The notes: generated by a model from the sequence alone, not told the origin. DNA of 64,000 bases from a virus (IMGVR_UViG_3300017971_000228:1-64000); one strand, 5' to 3'; numbered from the stretch's first letter, positions 3-63,933 are shown. A program made the numbers and translations.

Positions 3-167
3 AACCTAGGCATGTACCGCATGAGTACATTCAACCCACCAGACCCATGCCTACACCATCCTGAGCTCAAGCTCGATCTCGACACCTACGAAGATTATCA
101 AAGACTGCTGGCCAGCGGGGTGGACATAGACATGACGGCGGCTGAGATTGTGAGGTGCTTCCTATGA
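3..167 (+). CDS. C-terminal fragment of a SpsF/NeuA-like cytidylyltransferase (5'-truncated)
   Basis: Frame 3 reads ...HPELKLDLDTYEDYQRLL...RCFL*, resembling the 'RLTVDTPED' C-terminal motif; stop overlaps neuB start (ATGA). Confidence 0.6.
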   Translation, partial: NLGMYRMSTFNPPDPCLHHPELKLDLDTYEDYQRLLASGVDIDMTAAEIVRCFL

Positions 168-1222
168 CGATCACTGAAGTATTCGACAAGTCCCCATCAT
201 ATCCCCTTCTGCGTCGCCCCTATCTCATCGCTGAGTGCGGCGTGAATCATGAGGGGAGCCTGGATCTGGCGCTGGAGCTGGTGCGGCTAGCAGCGCACGG
301 GGGAGCGGACGCGGTAAAGTTCCAGGCGTACCGCGCTGAGACGCTGGCTGTTACAGACAGTCCCGCATACTGGGACTTGCGTGAAGAACCGACGCTGAGC
401 CAGCGGGAGCTGTTCGCCAAGTACGACTTGTTGGGGGATGACGACTACCGCAGGCTGAAGGAAGAGTGCGACAAGTGCGGCGTGGACTTCCTGTTGACGC
501 CCTTCGATTTGCACTTCATCGAGCTGGCGGGTGAGCTGTGTCTGGCCATCAAGATTGCGTCGGCTGACATCACCTGCAAGCCGCTAGTGGAAGCGGTGGC
601 ACAGCAGGGCAAGCCGATACTTCTGTCCACGGGTGCGGCTACGTCGGAAGAGGTGGAGGACGCTATCGTCTGGACGCATGCCCTGCCGTTGGTACTTAGC
701 CATTGCGTTCTGAACTATCCGACGAAGGACATCAACGCCAACCTGAAGTACATCCCAGCGATGAAGGAGCGGTGGCCACAGTATTGGATGGGGTACTCGG
801 ACCACACTTTGCCGGGGGGCATGGAGGCGCTGGAAGCGGCGTGGTTGCTGGGCGCAGTGGTCTTGGAGAAGCACTTCACCCACGATAAGTACCTACGCGG
901 TAACGACCATTACCACGCCATGGACTGGCACGACATCGAAGACTTCCGCAAGTGGACGGACAGGGTGCTGAGGATGAGCCAGGTGGAGGACTTGACGAGC
1001 CAGGCACCTGCCATCCAGCACGCCAGGAGAAGTTTGGTGACGGCGGGGGTGCTGCCAGCGGGGCACAGGATCGACTACGATGATCTGACTTGGAAGCGTC
1101 CTGGCCACGGCATCAGCCCGAAGTCGGTAGACATCGTGGTGGGGATGATCACGTCGGGTTCGCTGGCAGCGGATCAGGTGCTGCAGTGGGAGAACTTGGT
1201 AATGGAGGTTAAGCATGGATAG
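164..1222 (+). CDS. neuB: N-acetylneuraminate/nonulosonate synthase (NeuB/PseI/SpsE family) with C-terminal SAF domain
   Basis: IAECGVNHEGS, GADAVKFQ, KIASAD, GYSDHT, EKHFT, DHYHAM, RRSLV...KRPGHGISP. Confidence 0.95.
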   Translation: MTITEVFDKSPSYPLLRRPYLIAECGVNHEGSLDLALELVRLAAHGGADAVKFQAYRAETLAVTDSPAYWDLREEPTLSQRELFAKYDLLGDDDYRRLKEECDKCGVDFLLTPFDLHFIELAGELCLAIKIASADITCKPLVEAVAQQGKPILLSTGAATSEEVEDAIVWTHALPLVLSHCVLNYPTKDINANLKYIPAMKERWPQYWMGYSDHTLPGGMEALEAAWLLGAVVLEKHFTHDKYLRGNDHYHAMDWHDIEDFRKWTDRVLRMSQVEDLTSQAPAIQHARRSLVTAGVLPAGHRIDYDDLTWKRPGHGISPKSVDIVVGMITSGSLAADQVLQWENLVMEVKHG

Positions 1223-1415
1223 ACTGCTCTGGATGGCTTTGCACAGCGTGTTCCACATCGTGCTGATGATCGCGTTTCTGAAGCTGCTGGGCAAGGTATT
1301 GGACATGACGATGCTGGAGAAGCGGCAGAAGAAGGCGTGGAGGTGGATGCTGTTCTTGCTGGTGTTTATCTATGGGGTGAGCAAGATGTGGTTTGCGAGA
1401 ATGTGGCTAGTATGA
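1215..1415 (+). CDS. Small membrane protein
   Basis: Two hydrophobic segments; GGAGG RBS; overlaps neighbours. Confidence 0.6.
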   Translation: MDRLLWMALHSVFHIVLMIAFLKLLGKVLDMTMLEKRQKKAWRWMLFLLVFIYGVSKMWFARMWLV

Positions 1416-1426
1416 AAGGAGAAGGA

Positions 1427-1711
1427 ATGTACAGACAGGGTGACTTGCTGATAGTGCCAGTGGAGAAGATACCGGACGATGCGCGGAAGGCTGATGACAC
1501 GGTGCTGGCCTTCGGTGAACAGACGGGCCATACGCACAGGCTGGTCGGCGGCGAGGTGATGCTGACGAAGGATCAGGTCTACTTCACCGTGGCTATCCCG
1601 ACGCCACTGGAGCATGATGAGCATGCGACGCTGGTCATTCCGCCAGGGGACTGGAAGGTAGTACAACAGCGGGAGTACTACGGGGAGAGAGAACGTCCTG
1701 CGTATGACTGA
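1427..1711 (+). CDS. 'MYRQGD' His-rich cupin-like protein, usual partner of DUF6745 proteins
   Basis: MYRQGDLLI...GEQTGHTHRL...LEHDEHATLVIPPGDWKVVQQREY. Confidence 0.75.
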   Translation: MYRQGDLLIVPVEKIPDDARKADDTVLAFGEQTGHTHRLVGGEVMLTKDQVYFTVAIPTPLEHDEHATLVIPPGDWKVVQQREYYGERERPAYD

Positions 1712-2495: not shown

Positions 2496-2909
2496 GTGGT
2501 TACAAAGTGCTATAGCTGCAGTCACTATGGCCACATGGTGTATCCGCTGGCAGGTGGAGAGAAGTGGGATTGGGTATGTAACCTTTGGAAACATCCGAAC
2601 GGCCCAGAGGGTAGTTGCGAATGGCACAGTCGCAATGCAGATGCGCAATCTGCCCCTGTGACACAATCTGATCCGCGCGAAGTTCGGGAAGATCCTGAAA
2701 GACGCAGGCAGTGGGGAATCATAGATCATGATGAAGATTACATTCTCATGAGAGATATGGATCGGAGGTTCTTGCTGGCCAGAGACCCGCATCCGGCCCG
2801 GGAATGGCATGTCCTTCGCGTTCCGGCTGATATGCTAACGGTAGAGGAAGCCCATGCTTGGACGTTCGGTCTGGCAGAAGATGAGTATAGGGTAGAACGA
2901 GAGTCATGA
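2496..2909 (+). CDS. Paralogue of the preceding gene: Cys-rich N-terminus plus DUF6745-like C-terminal module
   Basis: SDPREVREDPERRRQWG...WHVLRVPADMLTVEEAHAWTFGL aligns with the C-terminal half of 1704-2495. Confidence 0.6.
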   Translation: MVTKCYSCSHYGHMVYPLAGGEKWDWVCNLWKHPNGPEGSCEWHSRNADAQSAPVTQSDPREVREDPERRRQWGIIDHDEDYILMRDMDRRFLLARDPHPAREWHVLRVPADMLTVEEAHAWTFGLAEDEYRVERES

Positions 2910-3988
2910 TTGATGAACTTCGCTCCTACATGGAACGCCTCTTCCCGCTGCCTCGCTACCTGACAGGCGAGCCCAACCGAGAGACGCTGCGGATCCTGCG
3001 CGAGATTGTGCCGTTGACCATGATAGAGTACCCCTCGGGCATGCAGCTCTACGACAAGTGGGTCGTGCCAGATGAATGGCAGTGGGGCGCCAGACCGCTG
3101 CCACATGAGCAGATTCTGGGAGACGACGGGCGCCTGGACTTGAGCAAGCACGACGGTCAGTTCGTCAAGGGGGGAATGACGGTTGGCGAGTACCGACTGA
3201 AGGGCAAGTATCCACAGGAGTATCTCGTCTCCACCTACATTTGCCACCCATCCACGGCCAACGACAACCTGAGCGGCATGGTGCTGACGGCATTCCTGGC
3301 GCGGGAATTATCAAAGCTGGAGTTGAACTATTCGTGGCGGTTCATCTGGGTGCCGGAGACCATCGGGGCCATAGCTTACTTGCACGAGAACGAAGCGGAG
3401 ATGCAGGCCATAGACTGCGGGCTGGTGGTGACGTGCGTGGCGGGGCCGGGGGAGATTGGGTGGAAGATGTCCTTTGAGCCAGGACACAGGCTCAACAACA
3501 TTGTCACTACTGTCGTGGATACGTGGGCGGGGGGAGATACCCGCTATCCCTATGACACCGACGGCTCTGACGAACGTCAGTACAGCAAGCCAGGATTCGG
3601 GATCAACTGCTGCTCCATTCATTCAGGCAAGTACTATGAGTATTCCCAGTATCATACCAAGGCCGATGATCTGAGCTTTATCAGCTACGAACGAATGGTG
3701 AGGATGCGGGATATTTATTTGCGTGTGTGCTTGGTCATGGACCTAGATTTGGTTTACCTAAACTTGCAGCCGATGTGCGAGCCGAAGCTGGGGGAACGGG
3801 GGCTGTACGGAGACGACACCGTAGACGCAACGCTGGCGCTGTGCCAGTGGGCGGATGGAACGAGGCCGTTGTCTGTCATAGCACGGGATACGGGGATAGG
3901 GTTTGACAAGCTACATGGAGCGGCGAAACGGATGGTGAGATTGGGATTGCTGAAGGAGGGGGCGGTATGCAAACATACGTTGAGATGA
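2906..3988 (+). CDS. DUF4910 / M28 aminopeptidase-like polysaccharide-biosynthesis protein with C-terminal winged helix
   Basis: LFPLPRYLTG, STYICHPSTANDNLSG, VPETIGAI, GSDERQY, YHTKADDL, CEPKLGERGLY. Confidence 0.88.
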   Translation: MIDELRSYMERLFPLPRYLTGEPNRETLRILREIVPLTMIEYPSGMQLYDKWVVPDEWQWGARPLPHEQILGDDGRLDLSKHDGQFVKGGMTVGEYRLKGKYPQEYLVSTYICHPSTANDNLSGMVLTAFLARELSKLELNYSWRFIWVPETIGAIAYLHENEAEMQAIDCGLVVTCVAGPGEIGWKMSFEPGHRLNNIVTTVVDTWAGGDTRYPYDTDGSDERQYSKPGFGINCCSIHSGKYYEYSQYHTKADDLSFISYERMVRMRDIYLRVCLVMDLDLVYLNLQPMCEPKLGERGLYGDDTVDATLALCQWADGTRPLSVIARDTGIGFDKLHGAAKRMVRLGLLKEGAVCKHTLR

Positions 3989-7174: not shown

Positions 7175-7377
7175 AGACTCGGGAATTTGAGGGCCAGCTA
7201 TGGATGCCGACAGGGCTTAAGTGTCCTGACTGTGGTATGGAGATGTGGGTTCAGGTTGATCCTGACTGTACTGAGCCAGGTGGGTGTCTGGAATGTGGGT
7301 ATCGCGGATGGAAGCATGGAGGATTCATGCCGAGCACTGAGGAGATGGTGGAGGAGTTTCTGAAATCATGCAAATAG
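7165..7377 (+). CDS. Small zinc-ribbon protein
   Basis: CPDC...CLEC. Confidence 0.55.
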   Translation: MRVKTREFEGQLWMPTGLKCPDCGMEMWVQVDPDCTEPGGCLECGYRGWKHGGFMPSTEEMVEEFLKSCK

Positions 7378-7850
7378 CACGACGCCAGTTCCTGAAGATG
7401 ATGGGGGCCTTCGGCGCATCATTGGCGGCTGAAGGCTTGGCACCCAAGGGGATTATCAAGCCAGCGGAGCTGGTGCTGCCCAAGGAGCCAACGGTGGTGG
7501 GGCCTATGCCAAGGAAAGGTGGTGGCATATCCAACTTCGTTGAGATAGGCTTGGCTGGGCATACAATCACAATAGAGAATCCCCTCATTACGGATTACAC
7601 AGTTGACGGAACTTTGTTGTACGTTGATCGGCCGTCGTATGCGACTGTGAACATAACGATGTTGGTAGATGGTGTAGCGTTATCTCTTGTAGATAACTGG
7701 GTCGCCACCAATATGCACGGCAAGGGGGGTATTCTTCGCATTCCACAGTATGCAGCAGAATGGCTCTGTGTTTTCTGTGGTTCGCCGCAACCGATGATTC
7801 GGACGCACTGCTCTCAGTGCGGAGGAGCTAGAGATTGGGTGGTAGAATAG
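7368..7850 (+). CDS. Twin-arginine signal-bearing protein with C-terminal zinc ribbon
   Basis: MQIARRQFLKMMGAFGASLAA; CVFC...CSQC. Confidence 0.7.
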   Translation: MQIARRQFLKMMGAFGASLAAEGLAPKGIIKPAELVLPKEPTVVGPMPRKGGGISNFVEIGLAGHTITIENPLITDYTVDGTLLYVDRPSYATVNITMLVDGVALSLVDNWVATNMHGKGGILRIPQYAAEWLCVFCGSPQPMIRTHCSQCGGARDWVVE

Positions 7851-7866
7851 ACAGAAAGGGATAACG

Positions 7867-8031
7867 ATGGATGCTCAAACTTCAGAGGTTACAATCACTA
7901 AGGCCAAAGGGGGCTACGTAATTGATCCGCTGACTGGCAAGCTAGAAGTCTATACTAATCCCGTGGTGGCCTTGGATCAGATCAGGGTGTTACTTGACAT
8001 GAGTGGGGTTGAAGTTAGGGAGAAAGAGTGA
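7867..8031 (+). CDS. Hypothetical 54-aa protein (not in ORF track)
   Basis: MDAQTSEVTITKAKGGYVIDP...VREKE*; AAGGGA RBS; stop overlaps the next start (GTGA). Confidence 0.55.
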   Translation: MDAQTSEVTITKAKGGYVIDPLTGKLEVYTNPVVALDQIRVLLDMSGVEVREKE

Positions 8032-8846
8032 CGCTCCCCATCACCGTCGCCGTCTGCACCAAGAACGCCGAGTCCTACATCGAACGCTGCCTGGAAGCGG
8101 TGATCGCCAATCAGCCAGCGCAGATCATCGTCGTGGACGCCTGCTCCGGCGACAAGACCTGGCACATCATCAAGGACTGGCCGGGGATCTTTCCCGTCGC
8201 CAAGTACGGAGTCGGGTTAGCGTCGCAGCGGCAGATCGCCTTGAGCTACACCAACCAGCCCTACTACGCAGCCGTGGACTGCTTCCACATCCTCTACCAA
8301 CGCTGCTTGCTGGACTTGATGCGCGAGATGGACTGGTACGGGTTCCAGGCCATCCAGGCCAGGGAGTGGCAGGTGCCCAGCGAGAACTGGTGGACCAACG
8401 CCCGCGCCAGTGCGAACTACGACATCACCACCATGCCGCACGTCGAGGAGACCAACATGGTGGGCAGGCCGGCGCTGTACCGAACCAAGGCACTGAGGGC
8501 CATTGGGGGCTTCGATAGCAAGTTCGACTTCGTGGGCGATGAAGACACGGACGTCAGTATCCGCATGGAGATGGCGGGCTATCGCATGGGGCACGGGACG
8601 GGCATCGCCAAGCGGCTCGACGAGCTGGATTATCATTCGGCCATGCGGAAGTTCGTCAAGTACGGACGAGGCGACGCCAGGATCGTTCGCAAGTACCCAC
8701 GGAAGCGATTGGCGATCATCCGGCACCAGCTGTGGACGTATCCCTGGAGGCGGGGGCTGAAGCATCTGGAGTATTGGCCCTACTACGCATTGTGCGGGTG
8801 GGTGAGGTTTGGAGCGATGATGAAGGAGTTGACACGTGGCGAATGA
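8028..8846 (+). CDS. Glycosyltransferase family 2
   Basis: ITVAVCTKNAESYIERCL, IIVVDACSGDKT, GGFD, EDTDVSIR. Confidence 0.9.
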   Translation: MTLPITVAVCTKNAESYIERCLEAVIANQPAQIIVVDACSGDKTWHIIKDWPGIFPVAKYGVGLASQRQIALSYTNQPYYAAVDCFHILYQRCLLDLMREMDWYGFQAIQAREWQVPSENWWTNARASANYDITTMPHVEETNMVGRPALYRTKALRAIGGFDSKFDFVGDEDTDVSIRMEMAGYRMGHGTGIAKRLDELDYHSAMRKFVKYGRGDARIVRKYPRKRLAIIRHQLWTYPWRRGLKHLEYWPYYALCGWVRFGAMMKELTRGE

Positions 8847-10598: not shown

Positions 10599-11192
10599 GT
10601 GGCGCTGGCGACAGCGACGTTCAGCAAGCAGAACTATGACGCCTATCGCGGCGAAGTAGAGTTCCTTGCGCCCTGCGTGGCAGCGGCAATCGTAGAAGTG
10701 CTGAATCCCAGCAGCGTAGTAGAGCTAGGCTGTGGGCTGGGGATCTATCTTCGAGAACTGGCAGAGTTGGGTGTGAAGGTACGGGGGTATGAGTTCTCGC
10801 CGGACGCTATCACCTTCACGGAAGCTCCGGAGGGGACAGTACTGCGGCACGATCTGACATCGGCGCTATTCGCTCACCGTCGGTACGACCTAGCGCTATC
10901 CAACCAGGTGGCGGAACACATCGAGGAGCGGTTCGCCGACCATCTGGTGCATCTGATGACGGACCTGAGCGACGTAGTGTACTGGTCGGCGGCAAGGCCG
11001 GGGGCCGGGGGGCAGCATCACGTAAACGAGCAGTGGCCACCCTACTGGCACAAGCTCTTTGGAAGGAGGGGATACCGACAGGACGAAGAGTTGGCAGAAC
11101 GAGTGAAAGCGGAGATCAAGACACGGTGCCCCCGCGTCGGGTGGGGGCACCACATCTATACCGATTGCATGATGTACGTCAGGGATTCATGA
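10599..11192 (+). CDS. Class I SAM-dependent methyltransferase
   Basis: VVELGCGLG, VAEHI, SAARPGAGGQHHVNEQ. Confidence 0.88.
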   Translation: MALATATFSKQNYDAYRGEVEFLAPCVAAAIVEVLNPSSVVELGCGLGIYLRELAELGVKVRGYEFSPDAITFTEAPEGTVLRHDLTSALFAHRRYDLALSNQVAEHIEERFADHLVHLMTDLSDVVYWSAARPGAGGQHHVNEQWPPYWHKLFGRRGYRQDEELAERVKAEIKTRCPRVGWGHHIYTDCMMYVRDS

Positions 11193-14085: not shown

Positions 14086-14490
14086 ATGGATCGACGCGAA
14101 CTGCTCAAGAAGCTGCTGGGGGGAGCCGCTGGGGGAGTGATAGCCCTGGGCTTGCCCAAGGATATGGACATCGATACCTGCGATGAGGACGTGCTGGACT
14201 TACTGGCAGAGAAGATCGCAGAGAAGGTGGCAGAGCGGATAGGGCCCGCAGAGGATGATTTGATAGATGCGTCTCCGATGATGCCATACCCAGAGGAACC
14301 TATCATCACGATTAGAACGGTGCCATATCCACAGACTGTTACGGACAATTCAACTGGTTCGTATGGGATAGATTGGGGTACAGGCGGCAGTGTACTCTAT
14401 GACGACAACTCTACTGCGTGGAAGTTCTCAGGAAGTGGCGGGGTAGTATCGTGTTTGGGAGTAGCCGGATCAGCGGTTGATGTCTCCTAA
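14086..14490 (+). CDS. Twin-arginine signal-bearing protein
   Basis: MDRRELLKKLLGGAAGGVIALG; GGAGG RBS; directly after tatA. Confidence 0.7.
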   Translation: MDRRELLKKLLGGAAGGVIALGLPKDMDIDTCDEDVLDLLAEKIAEKVAERIGPAEDDLIDASPMMPYPEEPIITIRTVPYPQTVTDNSTGSYGIDWGTGGSVLYDDNSTAWKFSGSGGVVSCLGVAGSAVDVS

Positions 14491-31415: not shown

Positions 31416-31460
31416 ATCAGAGAGGCCAGGATTATCATTCCGGCTGAGGAGGGATAGGCA

Positions 31461-38132: not shown

Positions 38133-38145
38133 GGGGATTATCATT

Positions 38146-52548: not shown

Positions 52549-54045
52549 ATGGGAAGCAAGCTGGGGATCCACGTCAACGTTCCGGAAGATGAGAATCGGT
52601 ACGTTGAGTTCTGCCGGGTAGCCAAACCTGCGGCTGTTCTACATCTGGACTTGGGCAACACGTCATTTCCAAGGCGAGTGAAGGAAGTTTCGCCCAACAC
52701 GCTCATCATCGGGCGGAAGTGGTTCGCGTCGCAACCGCTAGACAATCCAGAATCCCGAGCGGACCGTGCCGTTGGGGCAATGCTGGATTCAAGCTGTGGG
52801 CGTGAAGGGCTGATAGACGTCTGGGTAGTCTATAACGAGATTGGCCCCCACATCACCCATGACTACATGCGCTTTGACATGCGAGCCATGCAGCGACTTC
52901 ATGAAGCCAATCAGAAGGGGGCTGTTGGTAACTGGAGCGTCGGAACCCCCGACATCTATGACTGGTACTCGGGGTGGTTCCACGAGACGCTACGAGTTGC
53001 TGATTACCTTGCCATTCACGAGTACTGTGCCCCTGCGATGGATAGTCCCAGGGGGCTAGATGCTGCCAATCCAGGTGAGGGGTGGTTTACGTTGCGCTAC
53101 CGCAAGATGATGAGGGCCCTGCGGGAACAGAACCTGGGATTTTCAATCCCGCCACTGCTCATTACAGAGTGCGGCATTGATTCCGGCGCTGCTCATTGGG
53201 ACCCTGGAGCGCAAGGGGGGTGGCGTTCCTTCGCTTCGCCGCAGGAGTACCTGCGCCAGCTGAAGTGGTACGATTCCTACTTGCAGGGTGACGACTACGT
53301 AGCCGGAGCCGCCACCATCTTCTGCTGTGGGACGCACGACCCCACCTGGGACAGCTTCGACGTTCAGGGCGAGATGCTGGATCTGCTGCAGAACTACTTG
53401 GTGGAAGAGCAACAGGGCGACGACATTATCATTCCGCATCCCGACTGGCTGATGGACTTGCGCCACATACTCCCCAGGCACGTCACCAAGACCTACAGTC
53501 GGCGCAGCCTGGCCAACGTCACCCAAGTCGTCATCCACCATTCTGCCGTCGCCCCAACCGTGGGGCCCTGGCAGATAGCGGAGTATCACGTCGGTGTCAA
53601 GGACTGGCCTGGGCATGGCTATCATGCTGACATCGCCATGGACGGACGCGTGTGGCAGTGCCAGGATTGGGAGACTTGGTCCTACCATGCTGGCGCCGTC
53701 AACCCAACGTCCATCGGCATCTGCTTGCTGGGCAACTTCATGGGTGGTAGTGAACCTACGGACGCACAGATCGAGACCGCCCGCAAGCTCATCAGCCACC
53801 TGGAACAAGTGGTAGGGCATGACCTGGAAGTCGTGGGGCATCGGGAAGTCATGGACAACCGCGATTGCCCTGGCGACTCATTCCTTGGTGGGTGGAAGCA
53901 GCGGTTGTTGGATGGGGTGGAACCTGAGCCCGACTGGGAGGAGATGTACCACGCAGTTCAAGAGCGGTACGAAGCAGAAGTCGCAGAGAGTGGCAGATTA
54001 TCAACCTTGTTGGCAGATATCGAAGAGTTGGCGAAAGAGAGGTAG
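52549..54045 (+). CDS. Endolysin: glycoside-hydrolase-like domain plus Amidase_2
   Basis: YNE, AIHEY, ITECG; VVIHHSA, WPGHGYH, YHAG..NPTSIGICLLGNF, GHRE...CPG. Confidence 0.88.
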   Translation: MGSKLGIHVNVPEDENRYVEFCRVAKPAAVLHLDLGNTSFPRRVKEVSPNTLIIGRKWFASQPLDNPESRADRAVGAMLDSSCGREGLIDVWVVYNEIGPHITHDYMRFDMRAMQRLHEANQKGAVGNWSVGTPDIYDWYSGWFHETLRVADYLAIHEYCAPAMDSPRGLDAANPGEGWFTLRYRKMMRALREQNLGFSIPPLLITECGIDSGAAHWDPGAQGGWRSFASPQEYLRQLKWYDSYLQGDDYVAGAATIFCCGTHDPTWDSFDVQGEMLDLLQNYLVEEQQGDDIIIPHPDWLMDLRHILPRHVTKTYSRRSLANVTQVVIHHSAVAPTVGPWQIAEYHVGVKDWPGHGYHADIAMDGRVWQCQDWETWSYHAGAVNPTSIGICLLGNFMGGSEPTDAQIETARKLISHLEQVVGHDLEVVGHREVMDNRDCPGDSFLGGWKQRLLDGVEPEPDWEEMYHAVQERYEAEVAESGRLSTLLADIEELAKER

Positions 54046-54051
54046 CTTAGA

Positions 54052-54609: not shown

Positions 54610-56136
54610 CTACATAGCACCCGCAAGCCAGAGACCGGTAACTTCGTCGTCTTCGATGAGGATGGCGCGTAGGACGCTGGTGAGGTTGGCGCGGAGGGCC
54701 TGCCGTTCCTGGGGGGTGAGATTATCATTCGCCAGCAGGCTGATGTGTTGGGGCAGTTCGTGGATGAGCAGATCGCGCAGCTCGTCACGTTCTCGGACTC
54801 GCTGCCGTTCTGCGTCAATCCTGGCAAGTTCCTGAGTGTTCTTGTCCAAGCGGGCCTTGAGGGCCCTGGCCCGTTCGGTGAAATCGGGAAGGGTGATGAC
54901 ACCGGATTCATAGGCTTCCCAGACACGACGCTGGCGCAGTTGGGTGTCATCCCGGTCAGCCAGTAATCGCCGTTCTTCCATCTCCCAGCCCTGGTCATCG
55001 GGGGCTTCCATCTGCCCCAAGAGTTCATCCAGTATGCGGGGGTTTCGGGCCAGCCTGATGAAGTAGTCCACCACCTTCTGGTGAATGACGTGGGTTCGCA
55101 TGGAATGGATACGCCAGTCTCGGGTAACGCTTCGACACCGATAGTACCGTCCGCCCCATTCTCGCTGATTGCCGGTGAAGAACCTATCATGGTGGACGCA
55201 GTAGAGTAGTTGGCTAAGTAAGAACGGTGCATTGCGGGAACGGGGGTGGTCCCCATCACGGCGACGCTGTTCGGCCTGTACTCTGTCCCACATGGATGGA
55301 TCATACAGTCCCTCAAAGGTGGCTTCGGCCAGTATGCAGTCTTCCCAGGGGAAGACGACGGCCGTCCGTTTTCCATTCCGCCTGATGTAGCGCCGCCGGC
55401 CGTAGGCTACCATCCCATAGTAGGCGGGCTGGTTCAGGATCCGATTGATGAGATCCTTGCCCCACTTTCCGCCTCGGGACGTGGCCAGACCGAGGCTGTT
55501 AGCTTCTTCGATGATCCACTTCTTGGTGACGCCACGAAGGAAGCTGTCTATCACGAAGCGGACGGTACGTTCGGCCTCGGGATCGACGAATTGGACGCGG
55601 GGCTTGCCCGAACCGTCCGACACGTAGGCGAACCCGAAGGGCAATCGAGATGGGGGAGAGCCGCGGCGCACCCTGGCCTTCATGCCCATCTCCCGACGCT
55701 GCTTGAGACGCAGGACTTCAGCCTCGGAGTAGCCAGACTCAATAGCCTCTCCCCAGACGTCCGCCTCCGTCCGTTCGTCGGTATTCGAGGGGGGCATGGT
55801 ACGGGAGTATACCCTGACACCGTGATCCTGCAAATAGTCGGCGACGGCCCGATTGAGGCGGCGAGTACGGGCCAGTCTATCGCGGGACTTGACGATGATC
55901 CACTGGATGTTGCCTGACGTGGCATGTTCCTGCAACGTGCGGTAGGCGGCGAGGTTCTTGACAGCATCGGCCATGCGATGATAGGATCGGGATTCGCCGG
56001 GGACGGTGATGTCCGCCACCAGTTCCCAGTCCAACGCTTCAGCCAGCGCATGGTTCAACCGATGCTGGTCATTGAGGGATTCCTTCTCAGCCTGGGGTTT
56101 GGAGGATACGGCAGCCCAGGAGATGGCTCGGGTCAT
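54610..56136 (-). CDS. Large serine recombinase (integrase)
   Basis: AVSSKPQA...SL..Q, SRDRLAR, PFGF, ILNQPAYYG, LLSQLLYC...YYRC zinc ribbon, coiled coil. Confidence 0.92.
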   Translation of the reverse strand: MTRAISWAAVSSKPQAEKESLNDQHRLNHALAEALDWELVADITVPGESRSYHRMADAVKNLAAYRTLQEHATSGNIQWIIVKSRDRLARTRRLNRAVADYLQDHGVRVYSRTMPPSNTDERTEADVWGEAIESGYSEAEVLRLKQRREMGMKARVRRGSPPSRLPFGFAYVSDGSGKPRVQFVDPEAERTVRFVIDSFLRGVTKKWIIEEANSLGLATSRGGKWGKDLINRILNQPAYYGMVAYGRRRYIRRNGKRTAVVFPWEDCILAEATFEGLYDPSMWDRVQAEQRRRDGDHPRSRNAPFLLSQLLYCVHHDRFFTGNQREWGGRYYRCRSVTRDWRIHSMRTHVIHQKVVDYFIRLARNPRILDELLGQMEAPDDQGWEMEERRLLADRDDTQLRQRRVWEAYESGVITLPDFTERARALKARLDKNTQELARIDAERQRVRERDELRDLLIHELPQHISLLANDNLTPQERQALRANLTSVLRAILIEDDEVTGLWLAGAM

Positions 56137-56606
56137 GTTTCCGATTCTGGCAGGGCTTCTCGTATGTTGATGCCGTATAGCAGCATGGCCAAGCCCACAA
56201 AGGCCGCGCCGTAGGTAATGGTGCGTTCAATTCCCCAGGCGATCTGCAAGTAGACTACACTACAGAGCATGACTGCCACGCCGATGCCGCCCACGATCCT
56301 GCCGGTCAGCGAGACGGGGCCCTTCGGCTTGTTACGCTGAGTAGAGAACGTGGGGGTGACTTCGCTCTGACAGTAGGGGCACTTGGTGGCTGCGGGGTCC
56401 ACGGTCTTCTTGCAGTAGGGACAGGGGTTGCCAGCTTCACCGACACAAAGTGCTATGATGAGGGCCAGGGGGCCCAGCAGGGCGCCGACGATGAACCACG
56501 CCAGGGCGCTACGTCGTTTGTTGCCGGCGACTATGGAGCACACAAAAGCGGAACCTAGCCAGATCAGCAGCCATGCCATCGCCCATCTCCCTTCAGCGAT
56601 TATCAT
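56133..56606 (-). CDS. Membrane protein with zinc ribbon (possible superinfection-related)
   Basis: TM helices, KRRSALAWF, CPYC...CPYC. Confidence 0.7.
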   Translation of the reverse strand: MIIAEGRWAMAWLLIWLGSAFVCSIVAGNKRRSALAWFIVGALLGPLALIIALCVGEAGNPCPYCKKTVDPAATKCPYCQSEVTPTFSTQRNKPKGPVSLTGRIVGGIGVAVMLCSVVYLQIAWGIERTITYGAAFVGLAMLLYGINIREALPESET

Positions 56607-56756
56607 TCCAGCCGTCGGATATTTCCTAGCTGATCAATCTCGAACCAGATGCGTATGGGAACATTTAGCCAGTGTGCAAGGAAGAGTTGGGAGGGTGGTG
56701 TCAAACGCTTCACAAACCAACCGAAGAGGTATTCGTTGATGCCGTTGGGGAGGTGC

Positions 56757-56966
56757 CTACTCGGCCTTGCAGGTACGCCCATCACAATACGCAGTACAGG
56801 CTTCGTGGCATCCAGGTGGGCCACAACATGAAGAACACTGCACCATGATTCTCCCGAGAAGTTGCTGCTGGCACGGTCTCAGCGACCGGATAATCTTCAC
56901 AAATAAGTCCTCTAACTCATCATGCGGGAATGCGTGTGGGTGAGTGCGGGTGTCTGGTCGCGGCAT
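56757..56966 (-). CDS. Hypothetical Cys-rich protein
   Basis: In the leftward operon with an AGGA RBS. Confidence 0.35.
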   Translation of the reverse strand: MPRPDTRTHPHAFPHDELEDLFVKIIRSLRPCQQQLLGRIMVQCSSCCGPPGCHEACTAYCDGRTCKAE

Positions 56967-57040
56967 TGGGTAGACATCCTATTGAGTTCTGTGCTGACTT
57001 TGGACGCCAGCGTAATGTGTCGGAGGTCGCTATCGTGGCC

Positions 57041-57463
57041 TCACTCCTCTAGGTCTTGACCCTGTGTGGTCGGTGGCCCTTCGTCATCTCCGATGATGCG
57101 TGGGTGTCGGGTACGCTGCTGGTGCTGCTGCAGGAATTGCACCATGTTCAGGATCGTGCGTTGTTCATCTTCTGGGAACTTACGAAAGTCATCCAGCAAT
57201 TGCCATTCGAGTTCGGTTCGGGGGGTGGAGGTTTGGTCGGCAAGCCAGTGCTGATCACTGAGACCGAGGAGATAGTCGGTAGTAGTATTCAGAGCTTCTG
57301 CAATCTTGCCCAGAGTTATTGCTGAAGCATTGGGCCGTTCGCCACTGAGCATGCGATAGATATGACCAACGCTTACACCCGAGCGATAGGACACCTGCCC
57401 CGGTGTAAAGTCCAGTGCCTCCATGCGTTCTCTGATTCTGTCGGTACGGATTCGTTCTGCCAT
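57041..57463 (-). CDS. CI-like XRE repressor (probably leaderless)
   Basis: RIRERM...VSYRSGVS..HIYRMLSGERPN...KIAEALNTTTDYLLG; divergent from cro. Confidence 0.88.
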   Translation of the reverse strand: MAERIRTDRIRERMEALDFTPGQVSYRSGVSVGHIYRMLSGERPNASAITLGKIAEALNTTTDYLLGLSDQHWLADQTSTPRTELEWQLLDDFRKFPEDEQRTILNMVQFLQQHQQRTRHPRIIGDDEGPPTTQGQDLEE

Positions 57464-57469
57464 GCGCCT

Positions 57470-57478
57470 ATTATAGCA
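57470..57478 (-). promoter_or_regulatory. Extended -10 promoter for the repressor
   Basis: TGCTATAAT on the minus strand, 6 nt before the ATG. Confidence 0.7.
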
Positions 57479-57527
57479 TATTCCGAAGGCAATTTGACCG
57501 TTTGGCGAAAGTCGTGGCAAATTGGAT

Positions 57528-57556
57528 TTGACAAGTGGCCAAAAGTATGCTATAAT
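57528..57556 (+). promoter_or_regulatory. Consensus sigma70 early lytic promoter
   Basis: TTGACA-17 nt-TATAAT with TG extension. Confidence 0.88.
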
Positions 57557-57588
57557 AGTAGCCAGGTGACAACAACGGAGGGAGGATA

Positions 57589-57825
57589 GTGAACAAGCTA
57601 TTGGAGGCACTGGAGCAGAAGCGCGGAGATACGTCGATAGTGGAGTTTGCTGAAGGACTCGGTATGCACTTCAGTTCATACTACCGACTTCTCAGGGGTG
57701 AGCGCGGGATAGGTGCGGATCTGGAACGACGGATCATGCGCCGGTATCCCGAACTCACCCTTGTTTTTTTGCAGCAATTTTCGCCAAGTGAGCACCAAGA
57801 AGTGCCAACTGAGCACCAGGAATAG
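57589..57825 (+). CDS. Cro-like HTH protein
   Basis: EFAEGLGMHFSSYYRLLRGER; GGAGG RBS. Confidence 0.8.
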   Translation: MNKLLEALEQKRGDTSIVEFAEGLGMHFSSYYRLLRGERGIGADLERRIMRRYPELTLVFLQQFSPSEHQEVPTEHQE

Positions 57826-57929: not shown

Positions 57930-58337
57930 ATGGTTACGATGACAGAAAAGATCAGCCAAGAGTTCGCAGGTAGGACACGGCAAGACGGCCCCGAGTTCCG
58001 CCCCACGTTCTCCAGGACCAACGGAAGTCTGATCTTCCAGTCACCCCGACGCGGCATCCTCAAGGGGTGGCTCGGGTGGGTGAAGATCCACCTGCCCATG
58101 TTCGCTTACGATCTGGAACGCCAATGGTGGGAAGCACCCCTGGGCGAAACGTCCTACGCCAAGGCAGTCTGGGCGGCGCATCGCCTACACGGCAAGGTGA
58201 ATTGGAGTGAGGGGATTCGGGAGTGGGCTGAGTCTCAGGGGCTAGAGACAGACGAATGGCGGGTCACCAAGCAGGAACGAGATGATGCGCTTCCCGCTTA
58301 TGTGGATCGACCAAGCCGAATGAGTATGTTCAAATGA
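57930..58337 (+). CDS. Hypothetical early protein
   Basis: Packed ORF. Confidence 0.6.
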   Translation: MVTMTEKISQEFAGRTRQDGPEFRPTFSRTNGSLIFQSPRRGILKGWLGWVKIHLPMFAYDLERQWWEAPLGETSYAKAVWAAHRLHGKVNWSEGIREWAESQGLETDEWRVTKQERDDALPAYVDRPSRMSMFK

Positions 58338-58537
58338 CGATCCGAAGATACCCCGATCCCGAACGATATCCCTACAACTGTACTCTCTGTAAGTTCTACG
58401 TGCCGACAGGCAAGCGGATGTGGGCCTGTGGGCATCTGAGGGGCTACGCGGGGTGCAAGGGGCAGAATGAATGGATAGCAAAGTCGGTCGAAGAGCGTCG
58501 TACCACCAAGGCGCCCAGATTTGCGAAGGAGGAATGA
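58334..58537 (+). CDS. Small Cys-rich early protein
   Basis: CTLC...C...C; ATGA overlap. Confidence 0.55.
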   Translation: MTIRRYPDPERYPYNCTLCKFYVPTGKRMWACGHLRGYAGCKGQNEWIAKSVEERRTTKAPRFAKEE

Positions 58538-58822
58538 TGGCAGATCCGATGGCGATAGCGTGGGGCATCTTTGCGGTAGTAGCGATCGTGCTGGCCTTTG
58601 CGCCAAGGAAGACCCAGTGATCCCCGAAGACGCGATTATCATTCGATACGGAGAAGTCCCCAGCATGAAGGCATCCCAGCGGTTTGCCAGCATGCTGAAG
58701 GGGATCATCGAGATAGGGAGGCAACATGAACGCATACATGCCATTGTTCCTGCTGGTGCTGGCCGTGCCGCTGGCGATGCTGATGGACTTGGCGCAGCGG
58801 ATACTCGGGTGAGGGAGGCCGC

Positions 58823-59095
58823 GTGAAGTTCTACCCCGATGCTGACTACTACTGTGGGGCTTGCGAAGCGGTCCGGTCCGGATGGGAGGACCCCCGACTG
58901 TGGGACATGCGATCCTACGGCGGGGGGCTGTATGTCATGGCCAACTGCCCGCACTGTCATAGTTCTAGGCTGATTGTAGAGCTGGAACGCAGACAGATGC
59001 TGGCCAGGAGTTTGGAAGGAGACCCCGATGAAAGTCATCGCCATCAACGCCTACACGCAGGACTATCCCCGAATCATCTTTTGTCGTCCGCATAG
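58823..59095 (+). CDS. Zinc-ribbon early protein
   Basis: CGAC...CPHC. Confidence 0.55.
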   Translation: MKFYPDADYYCGACEAVRSGWEDPRLWDMRSYGGGLYVMANCPHCHSSRLIVELERRQMLARSLEGDPDESHRHQRLHAGLSPNHLLSSA

Positions 59096-59210
59096 AAATC
59101 GCTGCTACGTTCTTACCCAGAAGCGGGCGCAGACGCTGATCCCGATTATCAATGACAGTGGCTCACGCCGCATTCATCATGATGGGTGGGCGTGGGTAAG
59201 GGGGGCGTGA
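59028..59210 (+). CDS. Hypothetical early protein
   Basis: AGGAG RBS; packed. Confidence 0.45.
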   Translation: MKVIAINAYTQDYPRIIFCRPHRNRCYVLTQKRAQTLIPIINDSGSRRIHHDGWAWVRGA

Positions 59211-59677: not shown

Positions 59678-60412
59678 ATGATGAACCAGGAACAGCTAGA
59701 ACGCCTGAAGTCTCCGTTCCCAGCTGAGGAAGTCCAGTGGCGGGCAGGTGCCACCAACAAGGATGATACCAAGGCTCTGGCCCTGGCCTACATTGACGCT
59801 CGTGCGGTAATGGAGCGACTGGATGAAGTAGTAGGGCCCATGAACTGGACCGACACCTATGATGAGTGGAAGGGTGGTGCAGTCAAGGCTGGCATCGGCA
59901 TCCGCAATGAAGAGGGCTGGGTGTGGAAGTACGACGGGGCGGATGATTCGGACTTTGAAGCTACGAAGGGTGGGTTCTCTGATGCCTTCAAGCGTGCGGC
60001 CGTCAAGTGGGGCATCGGACGCTATCTCTACCAGCTTCCAGCAGTTTGGGTTCCGTGCCAGAAGTACGGCAAGACCGTCAGATTATCAACCACACCAGCA
60101 CTGCCCAAGTGGGCCCTGCCCGACGGCGATACTTCATCCCCAAGATCCGAACCACAACCAGAACCTACCGAGGAACCAACAGCTGAAGAACCCACGACTG
60201 GGAAACCAAAGCCCTGGGTGGTCAACAATAGTACCCGTGGGCGCTTCTGGGGATGGGCCAAGAAGGCTGGCTTGTCCCACGATGACGTTCACACCGCCCT
60301 TGGCATAGACAGCCTCATGGACTGCGATCTGGACTATGGCGAGGCCCAGAAGGAAGCCCTACGCTGGCGGGACCAGCAGAAGCAAGCGGAACCCGAAGCT
60401 CTACCACTCTAA
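59678..60412 (+). CDS. Rad52/Sak single-strand annealing protein
   Basis: PFPAEEVQWR, YIDARAVMERLDEV, KGGFSDAFKRAAVKWGIGRYLY. Confidence 0.92.
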   Translation: MMNQEQLERLKSPFPAEEVQWRAGATNKDDTKALALAYIDARAVMERLDEVVGPMNWTDTYDEWKGGAVKAGIGIRNEEGWVWKYDGADDSDFEATKGGFSDAFKRAAVKWGIGRYLYQLPAVWVPCQKYGKTVRLSTTPALPKWALPDGDTSSPRSEPQPEPTEEPTAEEPTTGKPKPWVVNNSTRGRFWGWAKKAGLSHDDVHTALGIDSLMDCDLDYGEAQKEALRWRDQQKQAEPEALPL

Positions 60413-60430
60413 GTTCTGTGGGAGGATGCC

Positions 60431-60634
60431 ATGAAGCATTTCGTTGATGGGAACATGCTCTGCATAGTCAAGGATGACTTCGAGAATCTTCAGGAAAGCA
60501 ATGCGGTGTTCCTGCCCCTCAAGTCAGAATCTGCCCAGACAATCATCAATCGTGGTTTCAAGGCTCTGCCCATTGGGGATCTGATGGGTATTTACATGGA
60601 ACTACAAGGCGCTACGCCAGTAAGATTGAAGTAG
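60431..60634 (+). CDS. Hypothetical protein
   Basis: DGNMLCIV..DFENLQES.AVF; GGAGG RBS. Confidence 0.6.
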   Translation: MKHFVDGNMLCIVKDDFENLQESNAVFLPLKSESAQTIINRGFKALPIGDLMGIYMELQGATPVRLK

Positions 60635-60862
60635 TCGTGAATGCCGGCACGGAGGCTTAATGATGCTCGCTCTCTCTAGGGAAACACCGTCCGGCCCGTC
60701 TAGCCGGATACCGTGCAACGGAGAGGGGATCGCTGCTAGGGATCAGTCCGACGATCCACGTTAGGCTAGGTGGGGATAGGCCACCCCTATCCCCACCGCA
60801 ATCAGAGGCAAGGGGGTAGGGGAAGTTGAGGCCCCTGCCCCCACAATCAAAGGAGGCCAACA

Positions 60863-61239
60863 TCATGATCGACCTCCATACTGAACAGAGACGATACACT
60901 CAAAGCAGTCTGTGGGACGGGTTGACGGAACGAGGCAACCTCACCCACACAGCCATCCGACACATCGAGAACGCCCAATCGGAGTTATGGGGCGCCTGCG
61001 AAGTCTTCCTCGAACGACGCAAGGTTACCGAAGCCCGACACGCATTATCAATCCAGTTAGCAACCCTAGAAGCCAGAGAAGCGAAGCTGGTGACCAGGGG
61101 CGAGAACCTACTGCGACGATGCATGCTGGTGATGGGGGATCTGAGGCACATGCGACGAGTATGTTCTTCAGCGGAGTACCAGCAACGCGCAGACGACTGG
61201 CGCGACGGCCATCTTTACCAGGCATGTCCAAGCAACTAG
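60863..61239 (+). CDS. Hypothetical early protein (start uncertain)
   Basis: AGGAGG RBS ahead of the 3' part of ORF 60826-61239. Confidence 0.5.
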
Positions 61240-61485
61240 AGGAGGTGATCCGACTCTCTCTCCCCGGTGACACCCGCTTCCCACTTCTAGGCCCCATCTG
61301 GGAAGTACAGGATGACGGGGAGTACGTCCAAGTCGAGGGGGCCCGATGGCATAGAGAGGGGGACAGGATCATAGCAGACTACACACGTGAAGAACTTGAG
61401 TTGCTGTACGGGATGCTGGAGTACTCAGAGAACGGTGACACGAACGGGAACGGTTGGTGGTGGCTAGAGTAGAACGGAGGAATGA

Positions 61486-62409
61486 ATGAAGATCGCACTT
61501 AACAATATCAAGCCATCGCCTCACCCAATACGCACATCATGGGATGAGGACAAGCTGAATGAGCTGGCACAGTCCATCAGGGAGCAGGGGCTGATCGTGC
61601 CGGTGAAGGTGAGACCAGTGAACGGGTCGTATGAGCTGGTGTACGGCCATAGACGGACAGAGGCAGCACGTCGGGCAGGGCTAGCGGAGCTTGAGTGTGT
61701 GGTGGAGGGATTGGATGATACCGATACGCTCATTCAGGCATTGATTGAGAATGTGCAGCGAGAAGATCTGTCAGCAGTAGAGAAAGCCAAGGGTCTGCAT
61801 AGACTCATAGAGCAGACGGGATGGAGTCGCAATGAAGTGGCTAGGCGTGGGATCATGGACCTCAGCTTTGTCTCTCGATTGCTGTCTTTGCTGGAAGAGC
61901 CGGCACCGATATTGGCTAAGCTATCACCCATTGTCCAGGGCAATGACTTTCACATCACGGAAAAGCATATCAGGCAACCACGGGAGGTTGGCCTTTCCCC
62001 AAATGAGCGCATCAGCGTGATTGATAAGGCTGAGCGAGAAGAACTCACATCGACTGAGACCCGTCAAGTCGCAGAGTCGTATTCTGCTGCCGAGGATGAC
62101 GCTGAGCGCGAAGCCATCCTCAGCACTGACTACCACGATCCCGCCTTCCAGCAACTGGTAAGGGCTAAGGCTACGGTCAAGCGCCGCCAACAACGAAAGG
62201 AGCAGAAAGAACGACAAGACAACCCACGCGAGGTCAAGGAGTACATCGAAGCGGTTCAGACGTTTAGTGCCGCTGTCCAGCTAGCTATCAAGGTCGCTGA
62301 CTTCGGCAAGTTCTCACCAGAGGCAGGCCAGTTCCTGAAGGGCTGGCACAACAGTGTCCGCAATGGACTAGACAGACTAGAACAGGTATGGGAGGAAAAG
62401 AATGCCTAA
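61486..62409 (+). CDS. ParB/Spo0J-like protein
   Basis: LAQSIREQGLIVPV, YGHRRTEAA, LIENVQREDL. Confidence 0.88.
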   Translation: MKIALNNIKPSPHPIRTSWDEDKLNELAQSIREQGLIVPVKVRPVNGSYELVYGHRRTEAARRAGLAELECVVEGLDDTDTLIQALIENVQREDLSAVEKAKGLHRLIEQTGWSRNEVARRGIMDLSFVSRLLSLLEEPAPILAKLSPIVQGNDFHITEKHIRQPREVGLSPNERISVIDKAEREELTSTETRQVAESYSAAEDDAEREAILSTDYHDPAFQQLVRAKATVKRRQQRKEQKERQDNPREVKEYIEAVQTFSAAVQLAIKVADFGKFSPEAGQFLKGWHNSVRNGLDRLEQVWEEKNA

Positions 62410-62905
62410 GTTCAAGAGTGAAGAGTCACGGCAGGCGTTCTGCGAGCAGTATGCCGCCGTCAAGGAATGGAGAACCGATGTGGTGTGTGACCTGATTCGC
62501 AAGGTCATGCCCACGGGAAGCGAGAAGGCGATTCCCAAGAATGGGGTGGCCAGGGTCGCCGTTGACTACTATGAGAAGCATGCTGACGAGATCCGAGATG
62601 GTGACGCCATGTTTGATGCGCACAAGGACTCGTTCATCTGCATACGGTACATCCTCAATCACTGGTCTGACGTGACAGGGCGGCTGTCCGACATGGGGGT
62701 CACGGTCTGCTACTGCCATAAGGGGCAGTTCATCTCCGGCAAAAGGGCAGACATCGAAGCTGTGTTTACCCACAGGGACACCATCATTCGCAAGACAACT
62801 GAGAGGCGCAACTTGCTGGCTGAGAACGCCAACCGCAAGCGGTATATCGCTCTTCCGATGCTGACCCTAGACCTCTATCTGCCAGCGGTCTCTGTAGCTG
62901 CATAG
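62402..62905 (+). CDS. Hypothetical protein
   Basis: Coupled to ParB; GGAGG RBS. Confidence 0.6.
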   Translation: MPKFKSEESRQAFCEQYAAVKEWRTDVVCDLIRKVMPTGSEKAIPKNGVARVAVDYYEKHADEIRDGDAMFDAHKDSFICIRYILNHWSDVTGRLSDMGVTVCYCHKGQFISGKRADIEAVFTHRDTIIRKTTERRNLLAENANRKRYIALPMLTLDLYLPAVSVAA

Positions 62906-62991
62906 ATCATTGGGAACAGGAAACCTATACACATTATCAAAGCCTGGGGGCTGCCCCAGGTTGGACTCATACATAGAACGAGGGACACGTC

Positions 62992-63933
62992 ATGGAAGAC
63001 GCAGCCAGAATCAAGGAAGCGGTGGATTGTCGGGATTGGGTAGCAGCGACGTTAGGCGAACCAGAGTACAAGAACGGTGATCACTGGAAGTGGACATGTC
63101 CGTTTCATGGCGATACCGATCCGTCCCTTGCGGTGTACCAAAATGGATTCTACTGCTTCGGGTGTGATGCCAAGGGTGACGTGATTGACTGGGTGATGGA
63201 GTTCCAGAACCTGGACTTCAAGGCGGCAACGCAGGTGATAGAGTCCGGCATACTGACTTCGGGATCATACCGCGCCCAGGCCCAAGTCCACCAACGTATT
63301 GCCAAGGCCAAGAAGCAGCGAATCCGAGTGCTGGCAGCGGAAGTCAAGTGGCATGAAGAGTACGCTGATGCCCTACTGAAGCACGCTGAAGCGTTGGAGT
63401 ACCTAGAACAGCGGGGCGTGGACTACACGATGGCGGAACACTTCGGGCTAGGCTATCGAGAATCGCCCTGGGGCCCAGCGATAAGCATACCCTGGAAGGT
63501 GGGCGGTGAGTTACGGGGCATCCAGTACCGAATGATCCACGGGGACGGCCACATGCGCTATCGGTGGGAGAACCGCATGGAATCCAACCCGACGATTTTC
63601 AATGCCGACACCATCCATTCGGGTAGCAAGCCACTGTGGATCACGGAAGGCGCCCTCAAGAGTGTCATTCTCGTGAAGCATGGCCTGGACTCATGTGCGA
63701 TTATCAATAAGCAGGGCTGGAAGGCGGGCTGGGCCCCGCACTTCCACCAGCGCCAAGTCTATGTGGCCCTAGATCCCGATGCCCGAGATGAAGCGCAGAA
63801 GATCGCGTCCGACATAGGATCCAACGCGAAGGTGGTACAGCTGCCAAGGAAGCCGGATGACTTGTTGGTGGAAGATGGGTGGAAGGTAGAGAACTTGTTG
63901 GCGTGGGCGAGGAGTGGGAGGGTCGCTGAGTAG
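62992..63933 (+). CDS. DNA primase (CHC2 zinc finger plus Toprim)
   Basis: CPFHGDTDPS...CFGC...GDVI, YLEQRG, ITEG, LDPD, KPDD. Confidence 0.9.
   Translation: MEDAARIKEAVDCRDWVAATLGEPEYKNGDHWKWTCPFHGDTDPSLAVYQNGFYCFGCDAKGDVIDWVMEFQNLDFKAATQVIESGILTSGSYRAQAQVHQRIAKAKKQRIRVLAAEVKWHEEYADALLKHAEALEYLEQRGVDYTMAEHFGLGYRESPWGPAISIPWKVGGELRGIQYRMIHGDGHMRYRWENRMESNPTIFNADTIHSGSKPLWITEGALKSVILVKHGLDSCAIINKQGWKAGWAPHFHQRQVYVALDPDARDEAQKIASDIGSNAKVVQLPRKPDDLLVEDGWKVENLLAWARSGRVAE

Follow-up and report, generated by a model that had tools for sequence, protein, structure and literature searches.

Chi arrays of temperate phages are the closest described parallel to the element treated here, the heptamer ATTATCA on one strand of a 64,000-nucleotide stretch of viral DNA (IMGVR_UViG_3300017971_000228:1-64000), which is called the window below. 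Lambdoid phages without a RecBCD inhibitor gather host Chi sites in one orientation (PMC12315714). The Chi GCTGGTGG lies 20 times on the top strand and three times on the bottom strand of the Escherichia coli phage LLS, at one copy per 1.86 kb, and the Chi GCTGGCGC occurs 32:0 in the Pseudomonas aeruginosa phage MD8 (PMC12315714). Phage Chi sites are said to come and go; most Chi-rich lambdoid phages have no recombination module, although Gifsy-1 and other class B phages do (PMC12315714). A second precedent is phage tf: despite convergent gene sets, its genome has all 14 exact copies of a 9-nt site on the top strand, about 20-fold over chance; related words occur in its relatives, at similar positions within the tf group (PMC3517423). 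Temperate Cluster A mycobacteriophages offer a third comparison, with dozens of asymmetric stoperator sites spread through the genome.

The window runs from base 1 to base 64000 of a virus contig that is 98,106 bp long and whose first 123 bases are identical to bases 97984-98106. This identity is probably the assembly overlap of a circular or terminally redundant molecule, and it leaves a unique unit of 97,983 bp, referred to here as G000. An exact search of the window returns ATTATCA 29 times on the plus strand and never on the minus strand, so that each of the at least 29 plus-strand copies in the original prediction is an exact match; the reverse word TGATAAT, likewise reported as unseen, is absent from the window and from the whole genome. 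The copy at 94-100 recurs at genome position 98077 through the end overlap and is counted twice in the raw contig (44 copies). The unique unit holds 43 copies on the plus strand and none on the minus strand (43:0), which answers the question, raised with the prediction, of whether the polarity flips beyond the window.

Chance would supply few such copies, as had been estimated. One hundred dinucleotide-preserving shuffles of the window give 3.81±1.74 copies with both strands summed (maximum 10), and the chance expectation is about two per strand. ATTATCA comes first when all 7-mers of G000 are ranked by over-representation against an order-2 Markov expectation (43 observed vs 2.1 expected, an excess of about 20-fold). 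The GC content of the genome is 56.8%, slightly lower than the 58-60% judged by eye. Flanking bases extend the word to G-ATTATCA-W-T-S, with G at -1 in 31/43 copies, A or T at +7 in 40/43 and T at +8 in 28/43, in agreement with the consensus (G/C)ATTATCA(T/A)T drawn up earlier. The 9-mer (G/C)ATTATCA(A/T), which occurs 37:0, is the functional word (word-carrying oligonucleotide sequence, GATTATCAT). Its heptamer core is exact: all 21 one-mismatch variants stand at background on both strands, with 0 to 15 copies each, and ATTATC (n=45) is followed by A in 43 cases.

Codon usage does not produce this excess. In 300 within-gene synonymous-codon shuffles of G000, 30 fully coding copies compare with 8.69±2.41 expected (maximum 17, z=8.8), and the reverse word is found 0 times against 2.6. 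The null is conservative, as the codon pools already include the codons of the word itself. Shuffled positions make up 82% of the genome and 13 copies fall outside them, in a remainder that includes unshuffled coding sequence (start and stop codons, overlaps). The original prediction had staked its claim on an excess that outlasts a codon null and on TGATAAT being clearly rarer than ATTATCA; both hold, with z=8.8 and no reverse copy. Codon choice at individual places is equally skewed. Among the places where the protein permits it, the Leu-Ser frame (xxA TTA TCA) is used eight times against 0.10 expected from codon usage, and TTA accounts for 3% of leucine codons, 8 of its 69 occurrences sitting in the word. 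Chance or a codon artefact is thus ruled out by the dinucleotide shuffles, the order-2 Markov scan, the codon shuffles and the counts of synonymous opportunity.

All three reading frames carry the word, as had been noted, with genes called by an ORF (open reading frame) caller trained on codon usage. In the frame ATT ATC A it encodes Ile-Ile, at 7452-7458 (gene 7368-7850), 12628-12634 (gene 11896-12978), 14780-14786 (gene 14477-15529, Ile-Ile-Ile), 22256-22262 (gene 21080-22411, peptide REIIKET), 28188-28194 (gene 27345-28307 of the capsid region, PQII), 39389-39395 (gene 39095-39598, Trp-Ile-Ile-Asn), 43945-43951 (codons 7-8 of gene 43927-46575, Val-Ile-Ile-Ile), 53425-53431 (endolysin gene 52549-54045, Ile-Ile-Ile) and 63700-63706 (DnaG-type primase gene 62992-63933, Ala-Ile-Ile-Asn). 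The second frame, xAT TAT CAx, gives Asp-Tyr-His at 8629-8635 (gene 8028-8846) and 11199-11205 (gene 11033-11899) and is also used at 15686-15692 (gene 15472-15993). Leu-Ser is encoded at 3307-3313 (gene 2906-3988), 21220-21226 (again gene 21080-22411), 35771-35777 and 47879-47885 (gene 46941-48488), and the third frame is used once more in the endolysin gene, at 53997-54003. The copy at 35771-35777 lies in a 1415-residue repeat protein in which, as the original prediction pointed out, paralogous GLST repeats are coded differently: GGA TTA TCA ACC at 35769 and GGA CTC TCC ACC at 36594, in identical peptide contexts. Further coding copies lie at 17575-17581 (codons 3-4 of gene 17569-18168), 59145-59151 (small gene 59028-59210), 60082-60088 (gene 59678-60412 for a Rad52-family annealing protein) and 61044-61050 (gene 60826-61239).

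The word is also present in non-coding DNA. It stands between genes at 31431-31437, 30 nt upstream of a start at 31461, and is also non-coding at 62933-62939, where it precedes the start of the primase ORF (62992) by 59 nt. Of the two intergenic copies first proposed, the one at 31431 stands; the other, at 38137-38143, is ambiguous, lying either within ORF 37945-38676 or between a Shine-Dalgarno-like GGGGG and the ATG at 38146. Similarly, the copy at 2467-2473, 29 nt upstream of a start at 2496, is either the end of ORF 1704-2495 or non-coding, and the coding status of 58635-58641 is uncertain (ORFs 58298-59047 on the minus strand and 58521-58826 on the plus strand). No preference for gene starts, gene ends or intergenic leaders is found. 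A promoter or translation-start element was rejected on the interval from -45 to +30 of starts, which holds 4/44 copies vs 4.6 expected in G000 and 8/60 vs 6.8 in a distant relative, described below.

Polarity does not merely reflect the direction of genes. All confidently called genes of G000 lie on the plus strand except a block at 54610-56824 (a serine integrase and two small ORFs), and a repressor-like ORF with a helix-turn-helix (HTH) at 57041-57610 is also on the minus strand. Within these 3 kb of minus-strand genes, two copies keep the plus orientation and none takes the minus orientation: 54721-54727 in the integrase gene (54610-56136) and 56599-56605 in gene 56133-56606, both as first described. 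Chance would place about 0.07 copies there (P=0.002), and the density of the whole genome about 1.3. If the word acted in or through transcription, for instance on the non-template strand as an element for an elongation factor, or as a site of RNA processing, polarity would be a consequence of gene direction. All but three or four genes lie on the plus strand in both G000 and the relative, so 41 of the 43 copies are in sense RNA, as this explanation would have it; the two plus copies and the lack of minus copies in minus-strand genes, the absence of any gene-start, gene-end or leader preference and the use of three frames make it quite improbable. A stoperator-like site fits poorly, given that 30/43 copies are fully coding, that starts show no excess and that gene direction is not followed. 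Cluster A stoperators are 13-14 bp long, mainly intergenic and oriented with transcription, whereas the word here spans 7-9 bp, is mostly intragenic and uses all frames.

Base composition at four-fold degenerate sites has the same strand dependence. In plus-strand genes of G000, G exceeds C on the plus strand (5134:3317), and the minus-strand genes (54610-57610) keep this plus-strand excess (181:82, p=1e-9). The relative shows 2922:2048 in plus-strand genes and 70:45 in minus-strand genes (44858-45724 and 60020-61264; p=0.025). The skew belongs to the DNA strand rather than to gene direction, with the caveat that another codon usage is conceivable in the few minus-strand genes, since these serve lysogeny. 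The counts fit an asymmetry between strands that stems from replication or from fixed prophage residence.

A portal search recovers this relative, G001, a 98,979-bp IMG/VR genome whose portal protein is 56% identical to that of G000. Its GC content is 45.6%, 11 points below that of G000, and ATTATCA is nonetheless both its most over-represented and its most strand-asymmetric 7-mer, with 60 forward copies (8.7 expected) and seven reverse. The reverse copies occur at chance (7 vs 8.7), carry no flanking consensus and are neutral. The 9-mer occurs 37:1, and the synonymous-codon shuffle gives 52 copies against 15.1±3.4 (z=11). Another genome, G003, adds no independent case, as it matches G001 at 99.97% identity. 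In a 20.6-kb fragment, L005 (portal 67% identical, GC 59%), the word occurs 3:0 against about 0.4 expected, with flanks at two of the three copies that match G000 sites (8290 in L005 with 14780, and 13333 with 21220). The count is 1:0 in a 5-kb fragment that encodes a capsid-region protein of 69% identity. The skew thus recurs in related phages, as the original prediction had proposed to look for. The trait is confined to the G000/G001/L005 clade, since more distant portal and capsid relatives (about 175 loci, about 1.6 Mb) stand at chance level (64:50 and 53:46). A search of a phage collection returned no related DNA for G000, its portal relatives there being less than 40% identical.

Individual sites turn over within the clade. 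Orthologous genes (46.7 kb) contain 20 copies in G000 and 29 in G001, of which three are at exactly the same position, among them 3307 (64885 in G001) and 14780 (78670), and one, that at 17575, is shifted by 6 nt. The same peptides are written with or without the word: REIIKET uses ATTATCA in G000 and ATCATCA in G001, PQII uses ATAATCA in G001, and Val-Ile-Ile-Ile at 43945 uses ATCATAA; at 12628 the G001 equivalent is ATAGTAA (Ile-Val). Sites are gained and lost through synonymous substitution. Because identical peptides carry the word in one phage and a synonymous variant in the other, selection targets the number and orientation of copies, not their place. As a side observation, G001 encodes tRNA-Tyr(GTA) and tRNA-His(GTG), matching two residues of the second frame, and G000 has no tRNA; the match may be coincidence.

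ATTATCA is therefore a directional, genome-wide DNA word kept by selection in a small phage clade. It acts at the level of DNA, because it is independent of frame, recruits rare synonymous codons, occurs in non-coding DNA, does not flip in minus-strand genes and is conserved in a relative; the polar, DNA-level signal originally proposed is borne out by the codon shuffle, the use of TTA TCA and the relative alike. Across the clade, one strand carries a copy every 1.7-2.3 kb or so, as densely in genes common to G000 and G001 as in genes not common to them.

Spacing on the circle is indistinguishable from random (Poisson), with a coefficient of variation of 0.86 in G000 and 1.05 in G001; regular spacing was sought in both genomes and not found, and the dense regions differ between them. 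Mean spacing is 1.65-2.28 kb, no significance attaches to the largest gaps (10.6 and 9.6 kb), and some copies lie 7-153 bp apart. The mean spacing is in the range of Okazaki fragments, which would suit a word that starts lagging-strand priming on a constant lagging-strand template in unidirectional (rolling-circle) replication. The word also lies on the G-rich strand, the four-fold skew does not depend on gene direction, as expected where replication leaves a strand unpaired, both phages encode DnaG-type primases, and a 7-nt requirement would force enrichment. Selection for regular coverage, as with priming of the T7 gp4 type, is nevertheless not apparent from Poisson spacing with gaps of that size and copies so close together. 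DnaG-type primases read about 3 nt. Moreover, the two primases are 25% identical and G001 has no DnaB homologue, which is hard to square with an identical specificity of 7-9 nt, and priming is on balance improbable.

The absence of TGATAAT bears on two further readings, which hold that the word is a half-site for a host regulator that binds double-stranded DNA (Fur in its 7-1-7 form, or H-NS-like nucleation) or that Type III restriction has purged head-to-head sites. The 7-1-7 Fur box, TGATAAT-N-ATTATCA, is built from this heptamer. Without TGATAAT, G000 has no inverted repeat, and binding by a dimer or a silencer gives no cause for strict polarity. In T7, the EcoP15I sites (CAGCAG) all lie on one strand, which is explained by the loss of one orientation. 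The clade resembles T7 in having a short asymmetric word on one strand, and differs in that the forward word is enriched 7-20-fold, which restriction avoidance cannot bring about, while the reverse word of G001 is at chance and not depleted (7 vs 8.7). Both readings are very improbable. Resemblances to IHF sites, DnaA boxes, -10 elements and H-NS-like sites were compared by eye with the flank frequencies and rejected, having no supporting flanks.

The genome that carries the word is that of a tailed, temperate-looking phage, recovered from sediment and seawater metagenomes. Its structural, lysis and lysogeny genes include a Mu-type portal (DUF935), an amidase endolysin and a serine integrase, and its replication and recombination genes encode ParB, a DnaG-type primase, a DnaB-type helicase, SSB, the Rad52-family annealing protein and a resolvase. 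The small terminase subunit (terS) is encoded at 84182-84844 and a T4-type large subunit (TerL) at 84845-86299; terS, portal and late genes lie on the same strand as the word. Several DNA methyltransferases and a block of sugar-pathway genes are also present. An Fe-dependent dehydrogenase in the region 92328-94890 matches the solved Kdo 8-oxidase KdnB (5k8c, E=2e-65) and adjoins a DegT-type aminotransferase, which supports a Kdo8N-type pathway. At 68994-69503 and 72752-73156, a homologue of Vut_1/YhhQ-type (queuosine-precursor) transporters and a radical-SAM-like fragment sit among at least four DNA methyltransferase genes, one of them with an intein. DNA base modification in this phage is possible.

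Comparison of the DNA-acting proteins of G000 and G001 narrows the field of possible readers. A tblastn search with G000 proteins finds no homologue in G001 of TerL, DnaB, the Rad52-family protein, ParB, the Holliday-junction resolvase, the ParB-like nuclease or the integrase, and the primases and small terminases are 25% and 30% identical. TerL has no detectable counterpart although the portal (56%), terS (30%) and the head and tail genes are common to both, which suggests that the packaging ATPase has been exchanged in phages that are otherwise syntenic. The ParB-like nuclease-domain protein absent from G001 is encoded at 82693-83346, about 0.8 kb upstream of terS, with one small ORF (83570-84166) between them. 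Since these proteins are missing or poorly conserved while the 7-9-nt word is identical, they, with TerL, DnaB, recombinase and primase among them, are poor candidates and unlikely readers. A packaging signal read by the terminase, or a site for the phage primase or helicase, fits poorly on the same comparison (no TerL or DnaB homologue, primases 25% identical). The reader most likely lies outside the variable replication, recombination and packaging modules of these phages, and a host-read signal would be the favoured explanation. Of the mechanisms listed in the original prediction, a Chi- or KOPS-like (FtsK-orienting polar sequence) signal fits best, and stoperator, terminase packaging and phage primase or helicase sites fit poorly.

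The readings rank with a Chi-like signal first, nick sites second and priming third, and the remainder goes to transcription or RNA roles, other DNA binding and a new reader. By analogy with LLS and MD8, ATTATCA might be a Chi-like signal for an end-processing nuclease of the host, a tentative reading that we place first while holding it short of probable. A host helicase-nuclease of the RecBCD/AddAB type would enter a free double-strand end, for example that of a rolling-circle tail or the side of a packaging cut left unprotected, move one way and read the word on the 3'-ending strand. At the word it would switch from degradation to recombination and protection. The phage would thereby mimic the host's own polar word, and the reader would be a host protein. 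A uniform, strictly polar array would fit a nuclease that always enters the rolling-circle tail from the same side. A host reader would also account for an identical word in two phages between which no common large terminase, helicase or recombinase is detectable. Like the Chi arrays of LLS and MD8, the array here consists of a short asymmetric word that is the top over-represented k-mer, lies on the late-gene strand of a temperate phage at about one copy per 2 kb, ignores reading frame and has copies that come and go. As for RecBCD inhibitors, G000 has no recognisable Gam- or Abc2-like protein, but many of its ORFs belong to no family.

Several observations weigh against a Chi-like role. The Chi sites of LLS and MD8 are G-rich and belong to known hosts, whereas ATTATCA is AT-rich; Chi copies in those phages cluster toward one cos end, and copies here are spread evenly round the map. 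All Chi sites named in that comparison are G-rich (PMC12315714). The P1 genome resembles G000 in size and in the density and dispersal of its word, yet its 50 Chi sites in 94.8 kb, counted here, are not polar (31 forward and 19 reverse, against 43:0). To our knowledge, the remaining Chi words are also G-rich, and an AT-rich heptamer within 57% GC would be the first. G000 encodes a resolvase and the Rad52-family annealing protein, and the latter counts against the reading. Lastly, KdnB-bearing genomes, seven among 400 Gammaproteobacteria, show no Chi-like word density in the five that were counted; these counts in themselves neither support nor exclude a Chi.

The search for a host yielded no close prophage among 185,579 species genomes, and an atlas search with the aminotransferase gave no lead. 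In a 301-genome class sample, an apparent 7-10-fold excess with one-strand runs proved to be an artefact, caused by depletion of the backward-read control ACTATTA itself and by the listing of forward hits before reverse ones; contigs fetched from this sample have ATTATCA at composition level on both strands. A literature search found no paper linking ATTATCA to Chi, KOPS or phage polarity.

The main rival, which was not among the mechanisms first listed, is that the words are sites of a phage-encoded nicking enzyme, leaving single-strand interruptions on one strand of packaged DNA that a ligase-family protein reseals after entry. The interruptions of tf, of LUZ24-like phages (5'-TACT/RTGMC-3'), of phiKMV-like phages and of T5 share with ATTATCA an exact one-strand word that is independent of gene direction and common to relatives, and tf is a precedent for equal strand exclusivity with an exact asymmetric consensus, as found here. 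The nicks were physically shown in those phages, whereas the evidence for ATTATCA is a pattern of sequence with rapid positional turnover. Only 3/20 positions are shared between G000 and G001, against similar positions in the tf group, although the two genomes are more distant from each other than tf-group phages are. The 43-60 sites are also denser than in known nick systems (4-14 per genome), and the reverse copies of G001 are at chance and not purged. Contigs assembled from two source runs (about 8-12x depth, no read ends) break at 46.5, 47.0, 53.4 and 55.5 kb, none coincident with a site, and are uninformative on nicks.

The two best conserved DNA-acting proteins common to G000 and G001 speak for nick sites: an RNA-ligase-family protein (61% identical) and the product of a late gene at 51147-52226 on the plus strand, between the tail and lysis genes (58%). 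Methyltransferases are also well kept (about 53-56%). The 51147-52226 protein has an N-terminal Myb-like HTH followed by a predicted metallophosphoesterase fold, closest to the PolD DP1 exonuclease and Mre11 (predicted local distance difference test, pLDDT, 84); its family is a small one, made up of 23 environmental proteins. This Myb-nuclease is the only conserved candidate among phage-encoded sequence-specific readers, and its link to the word is weak. Phages with 31-38%-identical homologues (G004-G007) have no dispersed polar word, which weakens the link and the nick-site reading with it; the G004 homologue matches over its whole length. Taken together, these points leave the nick-site reading doubtful, if ahead of priming.

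The genomes that encode these homologues have over-represented words of other kinds. In G004, TCGCCAG reflects a general CGCCAG codon bias. In the unrelated 87-kb phage G005, GCGTGCA(A) has 17/18 same-strand copies within 11 kb (53669-64684), several of them just upstream of the ribosome-binding sites of small genes, and looks like a local early-promoter or operator word. The over-represented words of G007 (51 kb) derive from tRNA genes and from a palindrome, GTTTAAAC, with 22 copies vs 0.4 expected.

The clade might instead use a phage-autonomous, directional genome-marking system of an undescribed kind, in which a clade-conserved reader loads, nicks or translocates at (G/C)ATTATCA(A/T) on one strand. 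Its function would be, for example, to steer DNA entry or to discriminate phage from host DNA, unrelated to Chi, to the nicks of T5 and tf or to priming. We regard this possibility with the same doubt as nick sites.

How enzymes are steered as they move along DNA can be seen from polar words (Chi, KOPS and nick sites, for example), of which very few are known outside model bacteria. ATTATCA is an unusually clean case, at 43:0 and about 20-fold excess, with the same word kept across 11 GC points. If the phages themselves read it, as a nick site or otherwise, the conserved Myb-nuclease is the enzyme indicated; for the nicks of T5, no function was known in 2012 (PMC3517423). If it is of the Chi type, it would be the first AT-rich Chi and would disclose which Chi an uncultured marine lineage of hosts uses; word counts in candidate genomes would then provide a sequence-only link between these phages and their host.

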